Notes: generated by a model not told the origin, from the letters alone. 10,929 bases of DNA from a virus (IMGVR_UViG_2698536418_000009:1-10929); one strand, 5' to 3'. Positions 1,128-10,929 are shown, counted from the stretch's first letter. Program-made: numbers and translations.

Positions 1128-1331
1128 TTAACCTCCAGATTTCAGCGTATCTAAAGGCGCATTCTCATTTGGTGTGAACCGAATAGTTGTGCTGATATTG
1201 ATTAATGCCCCGACACACAAGACTACGCACTCAGAGCAGATAGCAACTTCATCTTTTCCGCCTTTGGCGATGATTTTTTTTGCCTGCAGCTCGTTTGCGC
1301 CACAAAACGAGCATGTGAAATAACTGTTCAT
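1128..1331 (-). CDS. Stand-alone ClpX-type C4 zinc-ribbon protein (zf-C4_ClpX-like), about 67 aa
   Basis: Product contains CSFCG...(21 aa)...CSECVVLC, matching the Cys spacing and local residues of the ClpX N-terminal zinc-binding domain (E. coli ClpX: [32 protein letters not shown]). Start is uncertain: the track begins at 1349, the internal Met is at 1331, and my hand reverse-complement near 1317-1321 did not reproduce the track frame. Confidence 0.5.
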   Translation of the reverse strand: MNSYFTCSFCGANELQAKKIIAKGGKDEVAICSECVVLCVGALINISTTIRFTPNENAPLDTLKSGG

Positions 1332-1441
1332 TTGTGCTCTCTTACACATAGTATTTAACGAATCATCCGGTCATTCATACGCCACCGGCGGCTACTTCGT
1401 GGGCGTCCTGCCTGTTCGTTACTGCAACATCTTTAAGTTGT

Positions 1442-1664: not shown

Positions 1665-2351
1665 TTACCAAGTGCGCGATGACCAGAATACTCTACCTAT
1701 AACGTGAATTCTGGAACGCCTATCTTCGAAGGTGAGTATTTCATCTGGATACTCATCTTTATTGAAACTTCTTAGAATCAGACCACCGTCAGGTAAATTG
1801 ATCAATATTTTAACTCTAAGTAATACGCCATCACGTATGGCATAAAGATCCCCATCACGAATAGGAACCGTTTGGGAAACATCAACAGCAACAAAATCTC
1901 CATTGTTAAGTACAGGTAGTAAACTATTGCCCCAAATTTTTACGATCTTTGCATTGGAGACACATACACCAGCTTTTCTTAAATCAATCCTTCTTAGCGG
2001 GAACCAGTCTACAGTTGATTCAACTATTTCAGCCAAACATCCATTACCCGCTGATAACTCGACATCTAGGACTGGAATGTTTGCAAAAATGTCAGGATCT
2101 AATGCTGTACTTTCAGCCTCCTTTACAACAAGGTCTGGGAAAGACGCGTTATCCTCAATTCCCAATTGCAACCACTTTTGAGAAACCCCTAACACTTTAG
2201 CAATCTCTTTAATTTTCCGAGGCTGTTGAGTTTCTCCATTCTCGATTTTCGCTACGGATTGTTGTGAAAGCCCAATTTTTTCAGCTAGTTGCGCCTGACT
2301 CATTCCTGCTTTTTCTCTTTCGCTTTTTAGTCTTTCTGCCAATGTTTTCAC
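1665..2351 (-). CDS. cI: Phage CI-type repressor: N-terminal XRE-family HTH plus C-terminal S24 (LexA-like) autopeptidase domain
   Basis: 228-aa ORF. N-terminus has the HTH_XRE signature (AGMSQAQLAEKIGLSQQSVAKIENGETQQP); the C-terminal half has the size and layout of an S24 peptidase domain, but I did not identify the catalytic Ser/Lys. Transcribed divergently from the cro-like gene. GTG start with GAGGGGGA SD. Confidence 0.88.
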   Translation of the reverse strand: MKTLAERLKSEREKAGMSQAQLAEKIGLSQQSVAKIENGETQQPRKIKEIAKVLGVSQKWLQLGIEDNASFPDLVVKEAESTALDPDIFANIPVLDVELSAGNGCLAEIVESTVDWFPLRRIDLRKAGVCVSNAKIVKIWGNSLLPVLNNGDFVAVDVSQTVPIRDGDLYAIRDGVLLRVKILINLPDGGLILRSFNKDEYPDEILTFEDRRSRIHVIGRVFWSSRTW

Positions 2352-2737: not shown

Positions 2738-3197
2738 CCACAGTTTTAAGGAGATAGCCGTGGGTAAGCATCACTGGAAAGTAGAAAAACAGCCTGAGTG
2801 GTACGTGAAAGCTGTCAGAAAAACTATCGCAACGTTGCCGGGTGGTTACGCTGAAGCAGCTGACTGGCTGGATGTAACAGAGAACGCATTATTTAACCGC
2901 CTTCGTGCCGATGGCGATCAGATTTTCCCGCTGGGATGGGCAATGATTTTGCAACGTGCTGGTGGAACTCACTTCATTGCTGACGCTGTGGCGCAGTCTG
3001 CAAATGGCGTCTTTGTGTCTCTTCCTGACGTCGAGGATGTGGACAACGCCGATATAAACCAGCGCCTGCTGGAAGTCATCGAACAGATCGGGAGTTACTC
3101 AAAGCAGATTCGTTCGGCAATCGAAGATGGGGTAGTGGAGCCACACGAGCAGACAGCAATTAATGATGAGTTGTATCTGTCAATTTCGAAGCTCTAG
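2727..3197 (+). CDS. CII-like early regulator (phage CII/CP76- or YdaT-type), 145-156 aa
   Basis: Sits immediately after the cro-like gene; size and position fit CII-like prophage regulators. ATG at 2727 overlaps the cro-like stop; an in-frame GTG at 2760 has a strong AAGGAG SD (2748-2753), so the true start may be 2760. Confidence 0.55.
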   Translation: MESNHSFKEIAVGKHHWKVEKQPEWYVKAVRKTIATLPGGYAEAADWLDVTENALFNRLRADGDQIFPLGWAMILQRAGGTHFIADAVAQSANGVFVSLPDVEDVDNADINQRLLEVIEQIGSYSKQIRSAIEDGVVEPHEQTAINDELYLSISKL

Positions 3198-3492
3198 GAG
3201 CATGCAGCACTGGTCTACAAAATCTTTTGCGCTCCAGAAGAGAGTAACGCCCGCGAGTGTGCAGCTCCGGGCGTCGTGGCGTCGATTGCTTCTGGTTGTG
3301 GAGAAACTAACGCATGAACAGTTTAACAACACACTACCGTCGCTCGCAACTGATTGCGCTTCCTGTACCGGGTGGAAAAGCGAAGGTGGAGTATTGCTAT
3401 GCAGTGAATGTACCAGGTGACAGGGAAATTGTAACCCACAGCTTTGCAGAGTGGGCTGTGGGTGATTTCAACCGGCAGAAGGAGACAGTCCT

Positions 3493-3705
3493 TTGCGACA
3501 AGTTAACCGCTGGTTCAAAGATCACTACGGAGTGCCCGTCAGAGTCATTCGTTGGGAGCCGGAAACACAACGGGTTATCTACCTCCGTGAAGGCTATGAA
3601 CATGAATGCTTCAGTCCGCTCGAACAGTTTCGTCGTAAATTCAGGGAAATAGAGGTCGGTCATGAGCCTGTTAATGACATCCCAGCCCATTGTGATAAAT
3701 CGTGA
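3493..3705 (+). CDS. Small conserved protein (70 aa, TTG start) directly upstream of and overlapping the O-like gene
   Basis: AAGGAG SD (3479-3484) 8 nt upstream of TTG 3493. All five nucleotide differences between the two copies in this ORF (3573, 3588, 3600, 3606, 3615) are synonymous third-position changes in this frame and would be nonsynonymous in the overlapping frame of ORF 3314..3652. Confidence 0.5.
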
Positions 3706-4021
3706 TCTTGCATGCCGTATTGGTCTGAATGAGGCAATTGTGTTGCAGCAGCTTCATTACTGGCTGAATGAAACGAATTCAGGCACTGAGCATGGCGGAA
3801 TTCGCTGGGTTTATAACACGACAGAACAGTGGCTGGAGCAGTTTCCGTTCTGGTCAGAGTCCACTCTGAAACGCACATTTGCAAGCCTGAAATCACTTGG
3901 GGTTTTGCGTCGCGAGCAACTCAATAAATCGAAGCGTGACATGACCAACTTCTACACGATCAACTATGAAAGTGAGCTTTTAGAAGAGGTCAAAATGCAC
4001 TTCTCCATCGGGTCAAAGTGA
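3662..4021 (+). CDS. O-like replication initiator, N-terminal DNA-binding domain (119 aa), separated from the C-terminal domain by an in-iteron TGA stop and frame change
   Basis: GAGGT SD before ATG 3662. Product ends ...HFSIGSK inside the iteron array. The next ORF (4026..4631) is in a different frame and matches the C-terminal two-thirds of the intact O-like protein at 6552..7493. Confidence 0.55.
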   Translation: MSLLMTSQPIVINRDLACRIGLNEAIVLQQLHYWLNETNSGTEHGGIRWVYNTTEQWLEQFPFWSESTLKRTFASLKSLGVLRREQLNKSKRDMTNFYTINYESELLEEVKMHFSIGSK

Positions 4022-4138
4022 CCTGATGGATGGGCGCAAAATGATACGATCCATTGGTTCAAAACGACACGCTGTCATCGGGTCAAAATGGCCCAATGAT
4101 CTTACAGAGAATACAACAGAGATTACTACAGAGAATAA
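3986..4138 (+). repeat. Candidate ori iterons of copy 1: four GGTCAAA-core repeats (3986-4000, 4008-4023, 4054-4070, 4078-4094) plus three tandem 12-bp A-rich repeats (4103-4138)
   Basis: Direct repeats GAGGTCAAAATGCAC / TCGGGTCAAAGTGACC / TTGGTTCAAAACGACAC / TCGGGTCAAAATGGCCC, then TACAGAGAATAC / AACAGAGATTAC / TACAGAGAATAA. They sit at the N-domain/C-domain junction of the O-like gene, the same place lambda ori sits in gene O. Confidence 0.5.
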
Positions 4139-4631
4139 AACCTCTTCTCGTCCGGACGCTTCGCAACCGGACACGCAAACGGCTGAACAGGAGTTTTTAA
4201 CTCGCCATCCTGATGCGGTTGTATTCAGCCCTAAAAAGCGCCAGTGGGGAACGCAGGATGATTTGACCTGCGCACAGTGGCTCTGGAAAAAAATCATCGC
4301 CCTGTACGAGCAGGCCGCCGAATGTGACGGCGAGGTGGTTCGTCCCAAAGAACCGAACTGGACAGCATGGGCAAACGAAATTCGCCTGATGTGTGTGCAG
4401 GATGGTCGTACTCACAAACAAATCTGCGAGATGTACAGCCGCGTCAGCCGCGATCCGTTCTGGTGCCGTAACGTGCTCAGCCCGTCGAAGTTGCGGGAAA
4501 AATGGGATGAGCTTTCCCTGCGCTTATCGCCGTCCGTCAGCACGCACACAGAAAAACGTGAAGACCCGTACTTCAAAGCCAGTTACGACAACGTGGACTA
4601 CAGCCAGATCCCGGCAGGATTCAGGGGGTGA
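4026..4631 (+). CDS. O-like replication initiator, C-terminal domain ORF (201 aa); possibly the 3' part of a disrupted O gene
   Basis: Residues from TSSRPDASQPDTQTAEQ onward match the C-terminal region of ORF 6552..7493 apart from a few substitutions. Weak SD before ATG 4026. Confidence 0.55.
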   Translation: MDGRKMIRSIGSKRHAVIGSKWPNDLTENTTEITTENKTSSRPDASQPDTQTAEQEFLTRHPDAVVFSPKKRQWGTQDDLTCAQWLWKKIIALYEQAAECDGEVVRPKEPNWTAWANEIRLMCVQDGRTHKQICEMYSRVSRDPFWCRNVLSPSKLREKWDELSLRLSPSVSTHTEKREDPYFKASYDNVDYSQIPAGFRG

Positions 4632-4633
4632 TC

Positions 4634-4726
4634 ATGAGTCTGTTAAATGACGTTCAGAAATTCATTGAAGCCCATCCGGGCTGTACTTCCGGAGACATTG
4701 CGGATGCTTTTTACGTGGGGGCTTAA
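4634..4726 (+). pseudogene. 30-codon remnant of the PerC-like regulator gene (in-frame 396-bp internal deletion relative to 7496..7984)
   Basis: Encodes MSLLNDVQKFIEAHPGCTSGDIADAF + YVGA, i.e. the first 26 and last 4 codons of the 162-aa copy-2 protein. Deletion junction near 4708-4712 in a short T-run. The stop/start overlap TAATG with the methyltransferase gene is retained. Confidence 0.5.
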
Positions 4727-5379
4727 TGAGTAATAAATATTGCCAGGCGCTGGTAGAACTGCGGAACAAACCAGCCCATGAACTGAAGGAAGTGGGCGAT
4801 CAGTGGCGCACGCCGGACAACATTTTCTGGGGAATTAACACCTTGTTTGGTCCGTTTGTTCTGGATCTGTTCACTGACGGTGATAACGCCAAATGTGCCG
4901 CGTATTACACGGCGGAAGACAACGCGCTGGCGCATGACTGGTCAGAACGTCTTGCGGAGCTTAAAGGTGCTGCCTTTGGCAATCCCCCGTACAGCCGCGC
5001 CAGTCAGCATGAGGGGCAATACATCACCGGCATGCGTTACATCATGAAGCATGCCAGTGCCATGCGTGATAAAGGCGGGCGCTATGTTTTCCTGATCAAA
5101 GCTGCCACCGGCGAAGTGTGGTGGCCGGAAGGTGCAGATCATATTGCTTTTATTCGCGGGCGTATTGGTTTTGAACTGCCTGCCTGGTTTATCCCGAAAG
5201 ACGAAAAGCAGGTGCCAACAGGTGCTTTCTTCGCTGGTGCTATTGCTGTTTTCGACAAGACCTGGAAGGGACCGGCAATCAGCTACATCGGGCGCGATGA
5301 ACTTGAGGCATGTGGTGAGGCATTTCTGGCGCAGGTTCGCCAGCAGGCGGAAAAACTGGTCAGGGAGATGGTGGCATGA
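4726..5379 (+). CDS. Phage DNA N6-adenine methyltransferase (orphan, Dam-like), copy 1
   Basis: 217 aa with the catalytic motif GNPPYS (the (D/N/S)PP(Y/F) motif IV of N6-adenine MTases). Start overlaps the upstream stop (TAATG); stop overlaps the rusA start (ATGA). Confidence 0.8.
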   Translation: MSNKYCQALVELRNKPAHELKEVGDQWRTPDNIFWGINTLFGPFVLDLFTDGDNAKCAAYYTAEDNALAHDWSERLAELKGAAFGNPPYSRASQHEGQYITGMRYIMKHASAMRDKGGRYVFLIKAATGEVWWPEGADHIAFIRGRIGFELPAWFIPKDEKQVPTGAFFAGAIAVFDKTWKGPAISYIGRDELEACGEAFLAQVRQQAEKLVREMVA

Positions 5380-5765
5380 AGCTAATACTGCCTTTTCCGC
5401 CCAGCGTGAACACGTACTGGCGACACCCCAACAAAGGGGCATTTGCTGGTAAGAGCCTGATAAGCGAGGCGGGGCGAAAATTTCAGAGCGCGGCGTGTGC
5501 CGCCATCATTGAGCAGTTACGTCGTCTGCCGAAACCAACGTCGGCACCTGCTTCAGTGGAGATCGTGTTGTTTCCTCCGGATAACAGGATCCGCGATCTG
5601 GACAACTATAACAAGGCGCTGTTTGACGCCCTGACCCACGCGGGTGTGTGGGAAGACGACAGTCAGGTGAAAAGAATGCTGGTGGAGTGGGGACCGGTTA
5701 TCCCGAAAGGGAAGGTCGAGATCACTATCAGTAAGTACGAGAAAACGGCGGGTGCAGCCGCCTGA
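5376..5765 (+). CDS. rusA: RusA-family Holliday junction resolvase, copy 1
   Basis: 129 aa; MKLILPFPPSVNTYW... and RDLDNYNKALFDALTHAGVWEDDSQV follow the RusA layout. Typical nin-region position. Confidence 0.85.
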   Translation: MKLILPFPPSVNTYWRHPNKGAFAGKSLISEAGRKFQSAACAAIIEQLRRLPKPTSAPASVEIVLFPPDNRIRDLDNYNKALFDALTHAGVWEDDSQVKRMLVEWGPVIPKGKVEITISKYEKTAGAAA

Positions 5766-5784
5766 TCAAGAGGAGAAACGAAGT

Positions 5785-6207
5785 ATGAATAATCTGATGG
5801 TCATTGATGGTATTGAAGTTCGTCGTGATGTTTATGGGCGTTACAGCCTGAACGATCTACATCACGCAGCAGTAGCATCTGGTGCAAATGCCAGAACCAA
5901 GGAGCCAGGAAAGTTTCTTTCCAGCCAACAAACTGTTGAACTTGTTCATGAATTGACCAACACCCAGAATTTGGGTGTTGACCCGGTGAGTGTGATTCAT
6001 GGGGGAAATGAACGGGGAACGTATGTCTGCAAGGAACTGGTGTATGCCTATGCAATGTGGATCAGCCCGTCATTCCATCTGAAGGTGATCCGTACTTTCG
6101 ATATGGTAACCAGCGCACCGGAAAAATTATCCGGACAGGCTGCTGACAAGATGCAGGCTGGCGTGATCCTGCTGGACTTTATGCGATGTGGAGAAACTAA
6201 CGCATGA
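5785..6207 (+). CDS. KilA-N domain protein, copy 1, C-terminally truncated at the duplication junction (140 aa)
   Basis: AGGAG SD 9 nt before ATG 5785. Matches the first 133 residues of ORF 9366..10175, then diverges at 6186 into 7 novel codons (CGETNA plus stop) supplied by the start of unit 2. Confidence 0.65.
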
Positions 6208-6382
6208 ACAGTTTAACAACACACTACCGTCGCTCGCAACTGATTGCGCTTCCTGTACCGGGTGGAAAAGCGAAGGTGGAGTATTGCTATGCAGTAAATG
6301 TACCAGGTGACAGGGAAATTGTAACCCACAGCTTTGCAGAGTGGGCTGTGGGTGATTTCAACCGGCAGAAGGAGACAGTCCT

Positions 6383-6562
6383 TTGCGACAAGTTAACCGC
6401 TGGTTCAAAGATCACTACGGAGTGCCCGTCAGAGTCATTCGTTGGGAGCCGGAAACACAACGTGTTATCTACCTCCGCGAAGGCTATGAGCATGAGTGCT
6501 TCAGCCCGCTCGAACAGTTTCGTCGTAAATTCAGGGAAATAGAGGTCGGTCATGAGCACTAA
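6383..6562 (+). CDS. Small conserved protein, copy 2 (59 aa, TTG start), overlapping the start of the intact O-like gene
   Basis: Same SD and TTG as at 3493; coding sequence differs from copy 1 only by synonymous changes up to the repeat boundary. Below the ORF-track length cutoff. Confidence 0.45.
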
Positions 6563-7493
6563 ATTAACCGGCTATGTATGGGATGGTTGCGCTGCATCAG
6601 GCATGAAATTATCCAGCGTGGCAATTATGGCCCGCCTGGCTGATTTCAGTAATGACGAAGGTGTGTGCTGGCCATCAATTGAAACCATTGCCCGCCAGAT
6701 TGGCGCGGGGATGAGTACCGTCAGAACGGCTATCGCACGGCTGGAAGCAGAAGGCTGGTTAACGCGTAGGGCGCGTCGCCAGGGTAACCGCAATGCGTCG
6801 AATGTTTATCAGCTTAACGTTGCGAAGCTTCAGGCAGCGGCATTTTCTCAACTGTCAGATTCTGACCCGTCAAAATCTGACGCATCAAAATCTGACCCGT
6901 CAAAATTTGATGCGTCGAAATCTGGCAAAAAAGCGGGTTTTCACCCGTCAGAATCTGGTGGGGATCCGTCAGTAAAATCAAAACATGATCCGTCAGATAA
7001 AAAAACTTCTCGTCCGGACGCTTCGCAACCGGACACGCAGACGGCTGAACAGGATTTTTTAACTCGCCATCCTGATGCGGTTGTATTCAGCCCTAAAAAG
7101 CGCCAGTGGGGGACGCAGGATGATTTGACCTGCGCACAGTGGCTCTGGAAAAAAATCATCGCCCTGTACGAGCATGCCGCCGAATGTGACGGCGAGGTGG
7201 TTCGTCCCAAAGAACCGAACTGGACAGCCTGGGCAAACGAAATTCGCCTGATGTGTGTGCAGGATGGTCGTACTCATAAACAAATCTGCGAGATGTACAG
7301 CCGCGTCAGTCGCGATCCGTTCTGGTGCCGTAACGTGCTCAGCCCGTCGAAGCTGCGGGAAAAATGGGATGAGCTTTCCCTGCGCTTATCGCCGTCCGTC
7401 AGCACGTACACCGAAAAACGCGAAGACCCGTACTTCAAAGCCAGTTACGACAACGTGGACTACAGCCAGATCCCGGCAGGATTCAGGGGGTGA
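6552..7493 (+). CDS. O-like replication initiator (replisome organizer), intact, 313 aa: N-terminal winged-helix DNA-binding domain, iteron-encoded linker, conserved C-terminal domain
   Basis: GAGGT SD 5 nt before ATG 6552. The N-terminal 90 aa look like a helix-turn-helix replication-initiator fold. The linker is encoded by tandem 15-bp repeats (SDPSK/SDASK). C-terminal domain shared with ORF 4026..4631. Confidence 0.75.
   Translation: MSTKLTGYVWDGCAASGMKLSSVAIMARLADFSNDEGVCWPSIETIARQIGAGMSTVRTAIARLEAEGWLTRRARRQGNRNASNVYQLNVAKLQAAAFSQLSDSDPSKSDASKSDPSKFDASKSGKKAGFHPSESGGDPSVKSKHDPSDKKTSRPDASQPDTQTAEQDFLTRHPDAVVFSPKKRQWGTQDDLTCAQWLWKKIIALYEHAAECDGEVVRPKEPNWTAWANEIRLMCVQDGRTHKQICEMYSRVSRDPFWCRNVLSPSKLREKWDELSLRLSPSVSTYTEKREDPYFKASYDNVDYSQIPAGFRG
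6861..7006 (+). repeat. Candidate ori iterons of copy 2: four tandem 15-bp repeats (consensus about CCGTCAAAATCTGAC, 6866-6925), an A-rich tract, and three degenerate CCGTCAG-containing repeats
   Basis: CCGTCAAAATCTGAC / GCATCAAAATCTGAC / CCGTCAAAATTTGAT / GCGTCGAAATCTGGC, then GGCAAAAAAGCGGG, then CCCGTCAGAATCTGG, TCCGTCAGTAAAATC, TCCGTCAGATAAAAAAAC. Located inside the O-like gene linker. Confidence 0.55.
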
Positions 7494-7495
7494 TC

Positions 7496-7984
7496 ATGAG
7501 TCTTTTGAATGACGTTCAGAAATTCATTGAAGCCCATCCGGGGTGTACTTCCGGAGACATTGCGGATGCTTTTGCAGGTTACTCACGACAGCGCGTTCTG
7601 CAGTCAGCAAGCAAGTTACGTCAGAGTGGGCGTGTGGCTCACCGTTGTGAAGGGGATACACGCAGACATTTCCCGCGGCTGACTGAGATACCGCAGGAGC
7701 CGGAACCGCAACCAGTTCGTGAATCCAGACCTGTGCGCAATTTCTATGTCGGCACTAACGATCCCCGGGTGATTTTGTGCCTGACCCGCCAGGCGGAAGA
7801 ACTGGAGTCCAGGGGCTTATACCGTCGTGCTGCAACGGTGTGGATGGCGGCATTCCGTGAAAGCCACTCCCAGCAAGAGCGAAACAATTTTCTGGCGCGT
7901 CGTGAGCGGTGTTTACGGAAAAGCAGCAAGCGCGCTGCATCGGGTGAAGAGTGGTATCTGTCAGGGAATTACGTGGGGGCTTAA
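7496..7984 (+). CDS. PerC-like transcriptional regulator with N-terminal HTH-like region (162 aa)
   Basis: C-terminal motif AEELESRGLYRRAATVWMAAF resembles the PerC/Pch family signature as I remember it. AGGGGG SD before ATG 7496. Stop overlaps the MTase start (TAATG). Confidence 0.5.
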   Translation: MSLLNDVQKFIEAHPGCTSGDIADAFAGYSRQRVLQSASKLRQSGRVAHRCEGDTRRHFPRLTEIPQEPEPQPVRESRPVRNFYVGTNDPRVILCLTRQAEELESRGLYRRAATVWMAAFRESHSQQERNNFLARRERCLRKSSKRAASGEEWYLSGNYVGA

Positions 7985-8637
7985 TGAGTAATAAATATTG
8001 CCAGGCGCTGGTGGAGCTGCGGAACAAACCAGCCCATGAACTGAAGGAAGTGGGCGATCAGTGGCGCACGCCGGACAACATTTTCTGGGGAATTAACACC
8101 CTGTTTGGCCCGTTTGTTCTGGATCTGTTTACTGATGGTGATAACGCCAAATGCGCCGCGTATTACACTGCGGAAGACAACGCGCTGGCGCATGACTGGT
8201 CAGAACGTCTTGCGGAGCTTAAAGGTGCTGCCTTTGGTAATCCCCCGTACAGCCGCGCCAGTCAGCATGAGGGGCAATACATCACCGGCATGCGTTACAT
8301 CATGAAGCATGCCAGTGCCATGCGTGATAAAGGCGGGCGCTATGTTTTCCTGATCAAAGCTGCCACCAGCGAAGTTTGGTGGCCGGAAGATGCAGACCAT
8401 ATTGCTTTTATTCGCGGGCGTATTGGTTTTGAACTGCCAGCCTGGTTTATCCCGAAGGACGAGAAGCAGGTGCCGACAGGCGCTTTCTTCGCTGGTGCTA
8501 TTGCTGTTTTCGACAAGACCCGGAAGGGACCGGCAATCAGCTACATCGGGCGCGATGAACTTGAGGCATGTGGTGAGGCCTTTCTGGCGCAGGTTCGCCA
8601 GCAGGCGGAAAAACTGGTCAGGGAGATGGCGGCATGA
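7984..8637 (+). CDS. Phage DNA N6-adenine methyltransferase (orphan, Dam-like), copy 2
   Basis: 217 aa with GNPPYS motif. Differs from copy 1 by about 20 nt substitutions counted by eye, giving 4 amino-acid changes. The track start at 7951 is an upstream GTG; the ATG at 7984 matches copy 1. Confidence 0.8.
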   Translation: MSNKYCQALVELRNKPAHELKEVGDQWRTPDNIFWGINTLFGPFVLDLFTDGDNAKCAAYYTAEDNALAHDWSERLAELKGAAFGNPPYSRASQHEGQYITGMRYIMKHASAMRDKGGRYVFLIKAATSEVWWPEDADHIAFIRGRIGFELPAWFIPKDEKQVPTGAFFAGAIAVFDKTRKGPAISYIGRDELEACGEAFLAQVRQQAEKLVREMAA

Positions 8638-8960
8638 CGACGTTAACTCAATGCCAGCAGCAGGTGCTGGATATGCTGATTTCTTACCAGCAAGAACGTG
8701 GCTTTCCGCCAACCAATCAGGAGGTGGCAACCATGCTGGGATACCGTTCGGTGAATGCAGCGGTGGAGCATCTTCGCGCACTGGAGAAAAAAGGCGTCAT
8801 CACGATAAAGCGTGGCGTGGCCCGGGGGATAACTCTTCATACCGCGGTGAAGGACGACGACAGCGAGGCGGTCGGGATTATCCGCGCACTGCTTGCCGGT
8901 GAGGAAAACGCCAGGCTGCGTGCAGCCCACTGGTTACATGAGAGGGGCCTGAAAGTATGA
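8634..8960 (+). CDS. LexA N-terminal DNA-binding-domain protein lacking the S24 peptidase domain (108 aa)
   Basis: TQCQQQVLDMLISYQQERGFPPTNQEVATMLGYRSVNAAVEHLRALEKKGVITIKRGVARGITL aligns with the E. coli LexA winged-helix DNA-binding domain (...[62 protein letters not shown]). No peptidase domain follows. ATGA overlaps at both ends. Confidence 0.7.
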   Translation: MTTLTQCQQQVLDMLISYQQERGFPPTNQEVATMLGYRSVNAAVEHLRALEKKGVITIKRGVARGITLHTAVKDDDSEAVGIIRALLAGEENARLRAAHWLHERGLKV

Positions 8961-9346
8961 AGCTGATCTTGCCTTTCCCGCCCAGCGTGAACACGTACTG
9001 GCGACACCCCAACAAAGGGGCGTTTGCTGGTAAGAGTCTGATAAGCGCAGCGGGGCGCAAATTCCAGAGCGCGGCGTGCGCAGCAATAGTTGAGCAGTTA
9101 CGTCGTCTGCCGAAACCAACGTCGGCACCTGCTTCAGTGGAGATCGTGTTGTTTCCTCCGGATAACCGGATCCGCGATCTGGACAACTATAACAAGGCGC
9201 TGTTTGACGCCCTGACCCATGCGGGTGTGTGGGAAGACGACAGTCAGGTGAAAAGAATGCTGGTGGAGTGGGGACCGGTTATCCCGAAAGGGAAGGTCGA
9301 GATCACTATCAGTAAGTACGAGAAAACGGCGGGTGCAGCCGCCTGA
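8957..9346 (+). CDS. rusA: RusA-family Holliday junction resolvase, copy 2
   Basis: 129 aa, 2 amino-acid differences from copy 1. Start overlaps the stop of the upstream LexA-DBD gene. Confidence 0.85.
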   Translation: MKLILPFPPSVNTYWRHPNKGAFAGKSLISAAGRKFQSAACAAIVEQLRRLPKPTSAPASVEIVLFPPDNRIRDLDNYNKALFDALTHAGVWEDDSQVKRMLVEWGPVIPKGKVEITISKYEKTAGAAA

Positions 9347-10182: not shown

Positions 10183-10929
10183 GTGAGAGCACTACTGACC
10201 CCTGAAATTGCCCCGCGTATGGGGATCGTATTGTTCAGGCCAGGTTCAGAGCTGATGCCCCTGTTTATGCAGGGGCGTGTCCTGCTGGAGCCTGAGCCGG
10301 AGCGTTATTCATCTTTCGCCAGTGGTGCCGTTCCGGCGGCATCACAACCGCTGGCGGATGATCCTGCCGTTCGGGCCGTGTTCCGCAATGAGGCAGTGAT
10401 CCGTCGTGCTGGTGGCGTGGAATGTCTTGAAAGCTGGTTACTTCGTGAAAAAGGCTGCCAGTGGCCTCATTCCGACTGGCACAGCGAGAACATGACCACA
10501 ATGCGACACGCTCCGGGTGCAATCCGTCTGTGCTGGCACTGCGATAACCAGCTGCGCGATCAGTTCACGGAACGGCTGGAATCAATGGCAACGGATAACT
10601 GTGCCCGCTGGGTGTTGTCTGTTGTGCGTCGGGATCTCGGTTTTGATGACAGTCACGTTGTGACAATGCCGGAACTGTGCTGGTGGCTGATTCGTAATGA
10701 TCTGGCGGATGCCTTACCGGAAAGTGCAGCCCGTAAGGCACTGAGATTACCGAAGCCTGTTGTGCCGTCTGTTACCCGGGAAAGTGACCTTGTGCCTTCG
10801 GTTCCTGCCACCAGCATCATCCAGGATAAGGCGAAAAAGGTGCTGGCGCTGAAAGTGGATCCGGAGTCGCCGGAGTCTTTTATGTTACGCCCAAAACGTC
10901 GCCGCTGGGTTAATGAAAAGTACACGCGC
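10183..10929 (+). CDS. Conserved prophage protein with a Cys/His cluster, partial (runs off the right edge of the window); start uncertain (GTG 10183 or ATG 10219)
   Basis: Plus-strand frame open for 249 codons to the window end with E. coli-like codon usage. Contains C-x-W-x-H ... H ... C-W-H-C spacing that could bind metal. The minus-strand track ORFs 10265..10522 and 10653..10925 are shorter and judged to be shadows. Confidence 0.5.
   Translation, partial: MRALLTPEIAPRMGIVLFRPGSELMPLFMQGRVLLEPEPERYSSFASGAVPAASQPLADDPAVRAVFRNEAVIRRAGGVECLESWLLREKGCQWPHSDWHSENMTTMRHAPGAIRLCWHCDNQLRDQFTERLESMATDNCARWVLSVVRRDLGFDDSHVVTMPELCWWLIRNDLADALPESAARKALRLPKPVVPSVTRESDLVPSVPATSIIQDKAKKVLALKVDPESPESFMLRPKRRRWVNEKYTR

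Follow-up and report, generated by a model that had tools for sequence, protein, structure and literature searches.

The viral sequence IMGVR_UViG_2698536418_000009:1-10929, analysed here over its full length of 10,929 nucleotides (hereafter the window), encodes on its plus strand a LexA-like protein of 108 amino acids. This protein combines a LexA-type winged helix with a conserved C-terminal two-helix hairpin and lacks the S24 autopeptidase domain of LexA. Its gene is widespread in lambdoid prophages, where it keeps a fixed place ahead of rusA, and is under purifying selection. We posit, tentatively and with rather less than even confidence, that the protein may be a RecA-insensitive, hairpin-dimerised binder of LexA-box-like sites, which would be made after prophage derepression and would act on the SOS operators of the host. 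The gene and the parts of its product are as follows:

8634-8960, plus strand: LexA-like gene, 108 amino acids plus stop, ATG start; LexA-type winged helix and C-terminal helical hairpin
8634-8837, plus strand: winged helix-turn-helix, residues 1-68 (AlphaFold2 and Foldseek; helices 6-22, 28-35 and 40-52, strands 56-58 and 66-68)
8748-8789, plus strand: recognition segment, residues 39-52 (SVNAAVEHLRALEK), from the alignment to E. coli LexA; Glu44 replaced by Val
8838-8864, plus strand: acidic flexible hinge, residues 69-77 (HTAVKDDDS); predicted local distance difference test (pLDDT) below 50 at residues 71-75 in the AlphaFold2 model
8853-8942, plus strand: family-specific two-helix hairpin, helices 74-87 and 93-103, a putative dimerisation module (AlphaFold2, pLDDT ~83)

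The N-terminal part of the protein is a LexA DNA-binding domain. The Pfam profile LexA_DNA_bind (PF01726) is covered over its entire length (positions 1-65/65, E=2.6e-19, 69.2 bits compared with a gathering cutoff of 23.7), and the best sequence match in the PDB, obtained with phmmer, is the N-domain of E. coli LexA (1lea, E=6e-16, residues 2-70 aligned). A model computed with AlphaFold2 from 15 members of the family (mean pLDDT 80) superposes on the same domain. When this model was compared with the PDB using Foldseek, the LexA structures 1lea and 3jso ranked first with a root-mean-square deviation of 1.0-1.2 Å over 66-68 residues and ~51% identity, and unrelated winged-helix families appeared at E>0.01 only. 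A preliminary description of this DNA had proposed a LexA winged helix and suggested a structure prediction as a check, with an unrelated winged-helix family as the outcome that would speak against it. Profile, phmmer match and predicted fold all agree with the LexA identity, and the pattern NAA.EHL.AL..KG given in that description is fitted by the segment NAAVEHLRALEKKG.

The protein is clearly distinct from a bona fide LexA. It ends at residue 108, and the S24 domain with the catalytic Ser119 and Lys156 is absent; the Pfam search gave no Peptidase_S24 match in the protein, consistent with the missing autopeptidase noted beforehand. TIGR00498 is matched only at positions 1-91 of 203, with 70.3 bits, which is below the equivalog cutoff of 110.95. 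The gene is not preceded by an SOS box through which it could autoregulate, and the family shows no conserved Ala-Gly self-cleavage site. Because the catalytic (Ser/Lys) domain is absent, the biochemistry of LexA predicts that activated RecA (RecA*) would trigger no self-cleavage of the protein. Of the insensitivity to RecA* claimed in the preliminary description, the missing domain is thus directly observed, and the failure to be cleaved is what we would expect from LexA itself.

The same description had named no part of the protein besides its LexA winged-helix region. The protein is not a bare N-domain, however: a conserved two-helix extension follows the hinge. In the family alignment the hairpin pattern EAVxxLRALLA....ARxRAxxxL is amphipathic and is kept down to 38% identity, with members in Cronobacter, Kosakonia, Enterobacter, Salmonella, Cedecea and Stutzerimonas sharing it. 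Cleavage of LexA abolishes its function mainly by severing the link between the DNA-binding and the dimerisation domain (PMC3159453). Since the hairpin is conserved and hydrophobic and sits at the position of the LexA dimerisation domain, and since cleaved LexA fails through domain separation, the predicted hairpin is most simply read as a substitute dimeriser in place of the S24 domain. The hidden Markov model alignment to LexA extends through the hinge and places the residues LLAGEE opposite the cleavage-site region VAAGEP. A role of LLAGEE as a cleavage-site decoy was considered and rejected, as the Ala-Gly pair is variable in the family (LLANEE, LLVGEE and unrelated residues in distant members).

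The residues that contact DNA in E. coli LexA are Ser39, Asn41, Ala42, Glu44 and Glu45 (PMC3091678, PMC13416735). Four of these five are kept in the LexA-like protein (S39, N41, A42, E45), and the Glu44 position is occupied by Val. The wing residues R64-G65 are likewise kept and are invariant in the family alignment; together, the DNA-contact and wing residues represent the most conserved part of the protein. The motif S-x-N-A-A-x-(E/D) is found in 8 of the 14 aligned members, which are 33-66% identical to the window protein, and the hosts named for this count are Cronobacter, Kosakonia, Enterobacter, Cedecea and Stutzerimonas. Gammaproteobacteria, including all of these hosts, use the SOS box CTGT-N8-ACAG. 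As the contact motif is kept across hosts that share this box, the conserved target looks LexA-box-like and not phage-private, and mimicry at SOS boxes is plausible from the sequence of the recognition region.

In order to look for such targets, the window was scanned with a rough position-specific scoring matrix made from ~19 E. coli SOS boxes. In a control, the matrix located boxes 20-100 bp upstream of lexA in 12 of 13 gammaproteobacterial loci and none in two Geobacteraceae loci. No SOS-like site of at least 10 bits was present in the window. It also contained no perfect CTGT-N8-ACAG, with one-mismatch matches at chance level, and 0 palindromes of the form CTGT-N(0-16)-ACAG compared with ~2.8 expected, so that no operator candidate was seen in the immunity/early region. 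In phage PhiR29_1, which has a 100% identical LexA-like gene, 46 kb contain no strong SOS box and a single, chance-level site of 12.6 bits.

SOS boxes do occur in related phages. In SfII-type immunity modules, the cI coding sequence contains a near-consensus box (TACTGTTTTTATATACAGTA and close variants, 24-27 bits) between its helix-turn-helix (HTH) and S24 parts:

SfII (L009), 29167-29186: cI-internal SOS box
mEp460 (L001), 1546-1565: cI-internal SOS box
S. flexneri (L010), 3103-3122: cI-internal SOS box
Citrobacter (L012), 1865-1884: cI-internal SOS box

Both the immunity type of the window and PhiR29_1 are devoid of this box. Its sequence and position suggest that it may serve as a LexA-controlled internal or antisense promoter. 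It was the only strong site that the phages shared, and we rejected it as the cognate operator of the LexA-like protein, as it is the same in E. coli-type and Citrobacter-type phages despite their different recognition-helix variants; because it follows the immunity type and not the recognition-helix variant, it belongs to the immunity module. Another strong SOS box (TACTGTAAAAATAAACAGTG, 22.5 bits) is located in mEp460 at 10597-10616, where the late-region 'DNA methylase' gene mEp460_053 begins.

The gene is embedded between two partners, and the resident repressor lies upstream of the operon. The signals and neighbours in the window are:

8620-8637, plus strand: upstream coupling signal, with a Shine-Dalgarno (SD)-like AGGGAG at 8620-8625 within the 3' end of the methyltransferase gene and an ATGA stop/start overlap at 8634-8637
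8940-8960, plus strand: downstream coupling signal, with an SD-like GAGAGGGG at 8940-8947 in the 3' end of the LexA-like gene and ATGA at 8957-8960
7984-8637, plus strand: Dam-type N6-adenine methyltransferase of copy 2, the upstream partner (PF05869, E=2.6e-44)
8957-9346, plus strand: RusA Holliday-junction resolvase of copy 2, the conserved downstream partner (PF05866)
1665-2351, minus strand: resident CI-type repressor (HTH_3 and Peptidase_S24), a switch sensitive to RecA* that lies upstream of the operon with the LexA-like gene

As read directly from the sequence, the ATGA at 8634-8637 holds both the stop of the Dam methyltransferase and the start of the LexA-like open reading frame (ORF), and the ATGA at 8957-8960 holds the stop of this ORF and the start of rusA. 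These overlaps, the product of 108 residues and the S24 domain of the resident CI had all been pointed out in the preliminary description and were found in place. The data support translational coupling of the LexA-like protein on both sides. No internal promoter or terminator signal around the gene exceeded shuffled expectation; for this reason, and given the ATGA overlaps on both sides, the gene is probably expressed only within the early rightward operon. Purifying selection is evident from ratios of nonsynonymous to synonymous substitution (dN/dS) of 0.03-0.25 among close relatives. Between distant members synonymous sites are saturated, and length and architecture are still kept.

According to our searches, the 327-bp gene is present at 95-100% identity in 50 phage records, including Stx2c- and Stx2a-converting phages (Stx, Shiga toxin), the Shigella phages SfII and SfIV, mEp460, 1720a-02 and PhiR29_1. 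All 15 Stx2c phage records among these 50 matches carry it, and in the annotated phage records listed it is flanked by a methyltransferase gene and/or rusA. The genes of SfII (SfII_44), SfIV, mEp460 (mEp460_046), the Stx2c/Stx2a phages and phi1720a-02 share 97-100% nucleotide identity and the order methyltransferase, LexA-like, RusA. Among complete E. coli genomes, 2,233 of 5,426 (~41%) contain the gene.

The family has been named repeatedly. Phage records call it 'LexA DNA binding domain protein', 'LexA-like protein', 'repressor, lexA family' or 'transcriptional repressor', and in E. coli genomes the annotation pipeline PGAP calls it 'LexA family transcriptional regulator', with 100% nucleotide identity between the window gene and genes so annotated. 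PHROG 362 ('transcriptional repressor', ~106 amino acids) is matched over its full length, including the tail (residues 1-108 against 1-106/106, E=2.6e-59). A survey of Stx phages lists a LexA family with pfam01726 in 15 phages as 'pham 237' (PMC8136144). This is probably the same gene, matched by annotation only. The family is therefore already catalogued and annotated, and it is a distinct enterobacterial lineage with its own C-terminal module. Full-text literature searches yielded no experimental study of the protein. The 'bully phage' phi1720a-02 carries the gene, and the effect of that phage was attributed to Cro.

More distant relatives (44-67% identity) occupy the same prophage slot in Enterobacter, Cronobacter and Citrobacter, and the slot is kept across at least seven genera. 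The shared architecture is cI(S24)-cro-cII/YmfL-DUF4222-replication-(PerC)-(Dam)-LexA-like-RusA-(KilA-N/Ant)-DUF968-Q-lysis. Enterobacter and Citrobacter loci (L004-L006, L012) have the LexA-like gene and no Dam gene, and the conserved partnership is for this reason that of the LexA-like gene with rusA. In all related loci examined rusA is the next gene on the same strand, and in most of them the LexA-like gene overlaps the rusA start; one locus (L007) has an opposite-strand gene in between, and the PhiR29_1 record annotates a shortened rusA.

The LexA-like gene is a long-standing delayed-early gene of SfV/SfII/Stx2c/CPS-53-type lambdoid prophages. Within the early operon that runs rightward it sits after the replication genes and ahead of Q, and it is translated via its upstream coupling. 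In our working model, its product would appear only after removal of CI or upon infection. Devoid of the Ser/Lys catalytic domain, it would not cleave itself and could not be inactivated by activated RecA. It would dimerise through the helical hairpin, bind LexA-box-like palindromes with CTGT-type half-sites, and exert a RecA-insensitive repression at some or all host SOS operators while the LexA of the host is being destroyed. Phage-borne SOS boxes, where present, would be repressed likewise. Carried further, the protein might be a RecA-proof LexA surrogate that closes the host SOS regulon again once its own prophage has fired. Such a surrogate could cap RecA amplification, silence SOS-controlled antirepressors, colicins and SOS-dependent defences, block the induction of rival prophages and tune the output of toxin phages; we regard this wider scenario as doubtful. 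The pairing with rusA may hint at a link to the management of recombination intermediates, and hence to SOS signalling, during phage replication, which is speculation on our part.

Several observations weigh against the proposed action at host SOS operators. Glu44 is present in 13/13 sampled genuine gammaproteobacterial LexA proteins (40-51% identical to the query), and in the phage family this position is never Glu, being V, A, T, F, Q, Y, L or S instead. As Glu44 is invariant in LexA and absent from the phage family, the specificity may be altered. A Citrobacter variant exchanges residues 42-45 (AAVE to TITG/TIAG) with helix residues 39-41 and 46-51 unchanged, and variants from Salmonella (TVFI) and Cedecea (AAAT) deviate in this segment as well, although the hosts of all three variants share the SOS box of E. 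coli. The hairpin is unrelated to the LexA dimeriser, so the N8 spacing of the half-sites need not hold, and the isolated N-domain of LexA binds DNA weakly. In addition, the truncated LexA homologue gp6 of phage GIL01, which is 44% identical to the N-domain of its host LexA, binds a different site and activates transcription (PMC6182141). In favour of the proposed action, however, a neutral residue in place of Glu44 makes the DNA interface less negative and could offset the loss of the strong C-terminal-domain dimer.

These observations lead to a possible, if on balance unlikely, alternative in which the LexA DNA-binding domain was captured by the phage and drifted to a phage-specific operator. 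The protein would then activate or repress genes of the phage (e.g., late, lysis or accessory ones) and would have no appreciable effect on the SOS regulon of the host. The precedent of gp6, the loss of the otherwise invariant Glu44 and the rewriting of residues 42-45 among variants at the same slot, which looks like specificity switching, all fit this alternative, as does the frequent occurrence of stand-alone LexA DNA-binding-domain proteins in unrelated phages. The window offers no candidate for a private operator, however, as seen from the empty palindrome and matrix scans. Most members across several genera moreover keep the LexA-type contacts, which would be surprising with a separate operator for every phage, and the late genes of lambdoid phages are run by Q antitermination and need no activator.

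An improbable alternative is interference with the SOS response in the opposite sense or by other means. Here, monomeric or weak half-site binding would compete with host LexA and lead to derepression, or the protein would act by contacts with RusA, Dam, RecA or ClpX in place of specific DNA binding. The absence of the LexA-type dimerisation domain, the tight and conserved pairing with rusA and the alignment of the hinge and LLAGEE with the cleavage region VAAGEP would be in line with it. The variability of the Ala-Gly pair makes a decoy unlikely, however, and the strong conservation of the residues of DNA contact and wing speaks for DNA binding as the function under selection. LexA is also reported, from the filament structure 8TRG, to contact the RecA filament through its C-terminal domain, which the phage protein does not have. 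That the gene is a decaying, functionless remnant of a captured lexA can effectively be excluded. Its score below the TIGR00498 cutoff over less than half of that model, and its loss without obvious harm in a minority lineage, could be taken as signs of decay, but the dN/dS values, the retention of length and architecture despite synonymous saturation, the presence in 2,233 genomes, the intact coupling signals and the shared slot across at least seven genera contradict it.

The minority lineage is represented in the window itself. Positions 3297-6186 (copy 1) and 6187-~9770 (copy 2) are tandem early/nin segments with 94-99% identity, and only copy 2 has the LexA-like gene. Alignment of the two methyltransferase-rusA junctions reveals exactly 323 extra bases in copy 2, as stated in the preliminary description, and the direct coupling of the two genes in copy 1 is confirmed. 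The upstream SD (AGGGAG) of the LexA-like gene serves rusA in copy 1. The relevant copy-1 features are:

5376-5379, plus strand: direct methyltransferase/rusA ATGA junction (GGCATGAAGC), 323 bp missing (copy 1/copy 2 alignment)
4634-4725, plus strand: PerC-like remnant with a 396-bp in-frame internal deletion; a partial coding sequence in O157:H7 NE122

The polarity of the difference is nevertheless the reverse of the insertion into copy 2 that had been proposed. The gene-containing order is the common one and is conserved in relatives, and the direct methyltransferase-rusA junction occurs in at most 66 of the 5,426 complete E. coli genomes, compared with 2,233 that have the gene. This junction marks a naturally occurring minority lineage, of which O157:H7 NE122 is one example. 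Copy 1 is degraded elsewhere as well, with only ~80 nt from the 5' end and 17 nt from the 3' end left of the PerC-like gene (yfdN-type) that lies at 7496-7984 in copy 2. By parsimony, from frequency, conservation and the degraded state of copy 1, we conclude that the copy-1 lineage has lost the LexA-like gene, through a deletion from one ATGA overlap to the other.

The two copies are not a simple duplication. Their replication initiators have unrelated N-terminal parts and C-terminal 165 residues that are 96% identical, and in copy 1 the initiator is divided between two ORFs (3662-4021 and 4026-4631) that differ in frame. Both initiator genes contain iteron-like tandem repeats (12 bp x 3.2 at 4104-4141 in copy 1, 15 bp x 4.3 at 6861-6924 in copy 2). 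As the N-terminal parts and the iterons differ, the two copies have different origin/initiator specificities. At the junction near 6186/6187 the truncated KilA-N gene of copy 1 is joined to a ymfL-like 3' end, and neither the 5,426 complete E. coli genomes nor IMG/VR nor the JGI metagenomes contain such a junction. It stems either from a rare event of illegitimate recombination that involved two related prophages or from a chimeric assembly.

Three further observations were made in passing. The duplicated ORFs of 112 amino acids at 3314-3652 and 6204-6542 correspond to the gene annotated as YmfM in PhiR29_1 and overlap DUF4222 ORFs (3493-3705 and 6383-6562) in another frame; the YmfM protein of prophage e14 is reportedly an SOS-inducible inhibitor of cell division. 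Downstream of cI and on its strand, a gene (1128-1349, minus strand) codes for a stand-alone ClpX-type C4 zinc-finger protein of 73 amino acids (PF06689, E=1.5e-10). LexA and repressor fragments are cleared by the protease ClpXP, and the small protein could mimic or titrate the substrate/adaptor-binding domain of ClpX. Lastly, a library of 1.8 billion proteins contains many short proteins (P0134, P0136, P0141, P0153, P0172 and others; 140-230 amino acids) that match the profile twice, at separate places. These proteins apparently consist of LexA DNA-binding domains in tandem, two in each, possibly a covalent 'pseudo-dimer' answer to the loss of the S24 dimeriser.

As a sequence feature, the LexA-like gene is ordinary and already annotated, and the apparent insertion in copy 2 is really a deletion in copy 1. 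If it is true that the protein keeps SOS operators occupied during the cleavage of host LexA, the DNA-damage response of induced cells would be rewired by a very common prophage gene, with possible effects on competition between prophages, the yield of Shiga-toxin phages, SOS mutagenesis and antibiotic responses. The carriers include Shigella serotype-converting phages, Stx2c phages and some Stx2a phages. If the protein serves a private operator instead, it would be a second, independent case, after GIL01 gp6, of a phage re-using the LexA DNA-binding head as its own regulator, which would be of interest mainly to specialists in phage regulation.

Among known systems, the N-domain of E. coli LexA (residues 1-84; 1lea, 3jso) is the closest in structure. 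The phage protein has the same fold, keeps S39, N41, A42, E45, H46 and R64-G65, and has an acidic hinge after the domain. Unlike LexA, it has Val44 and lacks both the S24 domain with Ser119/Lys156 and a constrained Ala84-Gly85 site; in their place is a novel helical hairpin of 35 amino acids, and the protein is encoded in a phage early operon with no SOS box upstream. The gp6 protein of GIL01 (Tectiviridae), the nearest analogue that has been characterised, is a truncated LexA homologue that activates the late promoter P3 and binds GaCACAnnTGTGaC instead of the host box (PMC6182141). Both are phage-encoded LexA DNA-binding domains without a cleavage domain, and both are early gene products; GIL01, too, is a phage whose induction depends on SOS. 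However, gp6 derives from Bacillus LexA, of a Gram-positive lineage, in a tectivirus, whereas the protein described here is closest to gammaproteobacterial LexA (51%) and resides in prophages of the lambdoid siphovirus or myovirus kind, so that neither common descent with gp6 nor a tectivirus context applies. The C-terminal extension of gp6 folds into the wing in the homology model of its authors, and a tail of the helical-hairpin type is not described for it. Non-cleavable LexA (lexA3/Ind-, S119A, K156A) displays the phenotype predicted if the LexA-like protein does mimic LexA at SOS boxes, with SOS operators that stay occupied despite activated RecA. Those variants are full-length dimers with wild-type contacts, expressed constitutively from the host chromosome, whereas the phage protein has a different, putative dimeriser, lacks Glu44 and would be expressed from a derepressed prophage only.

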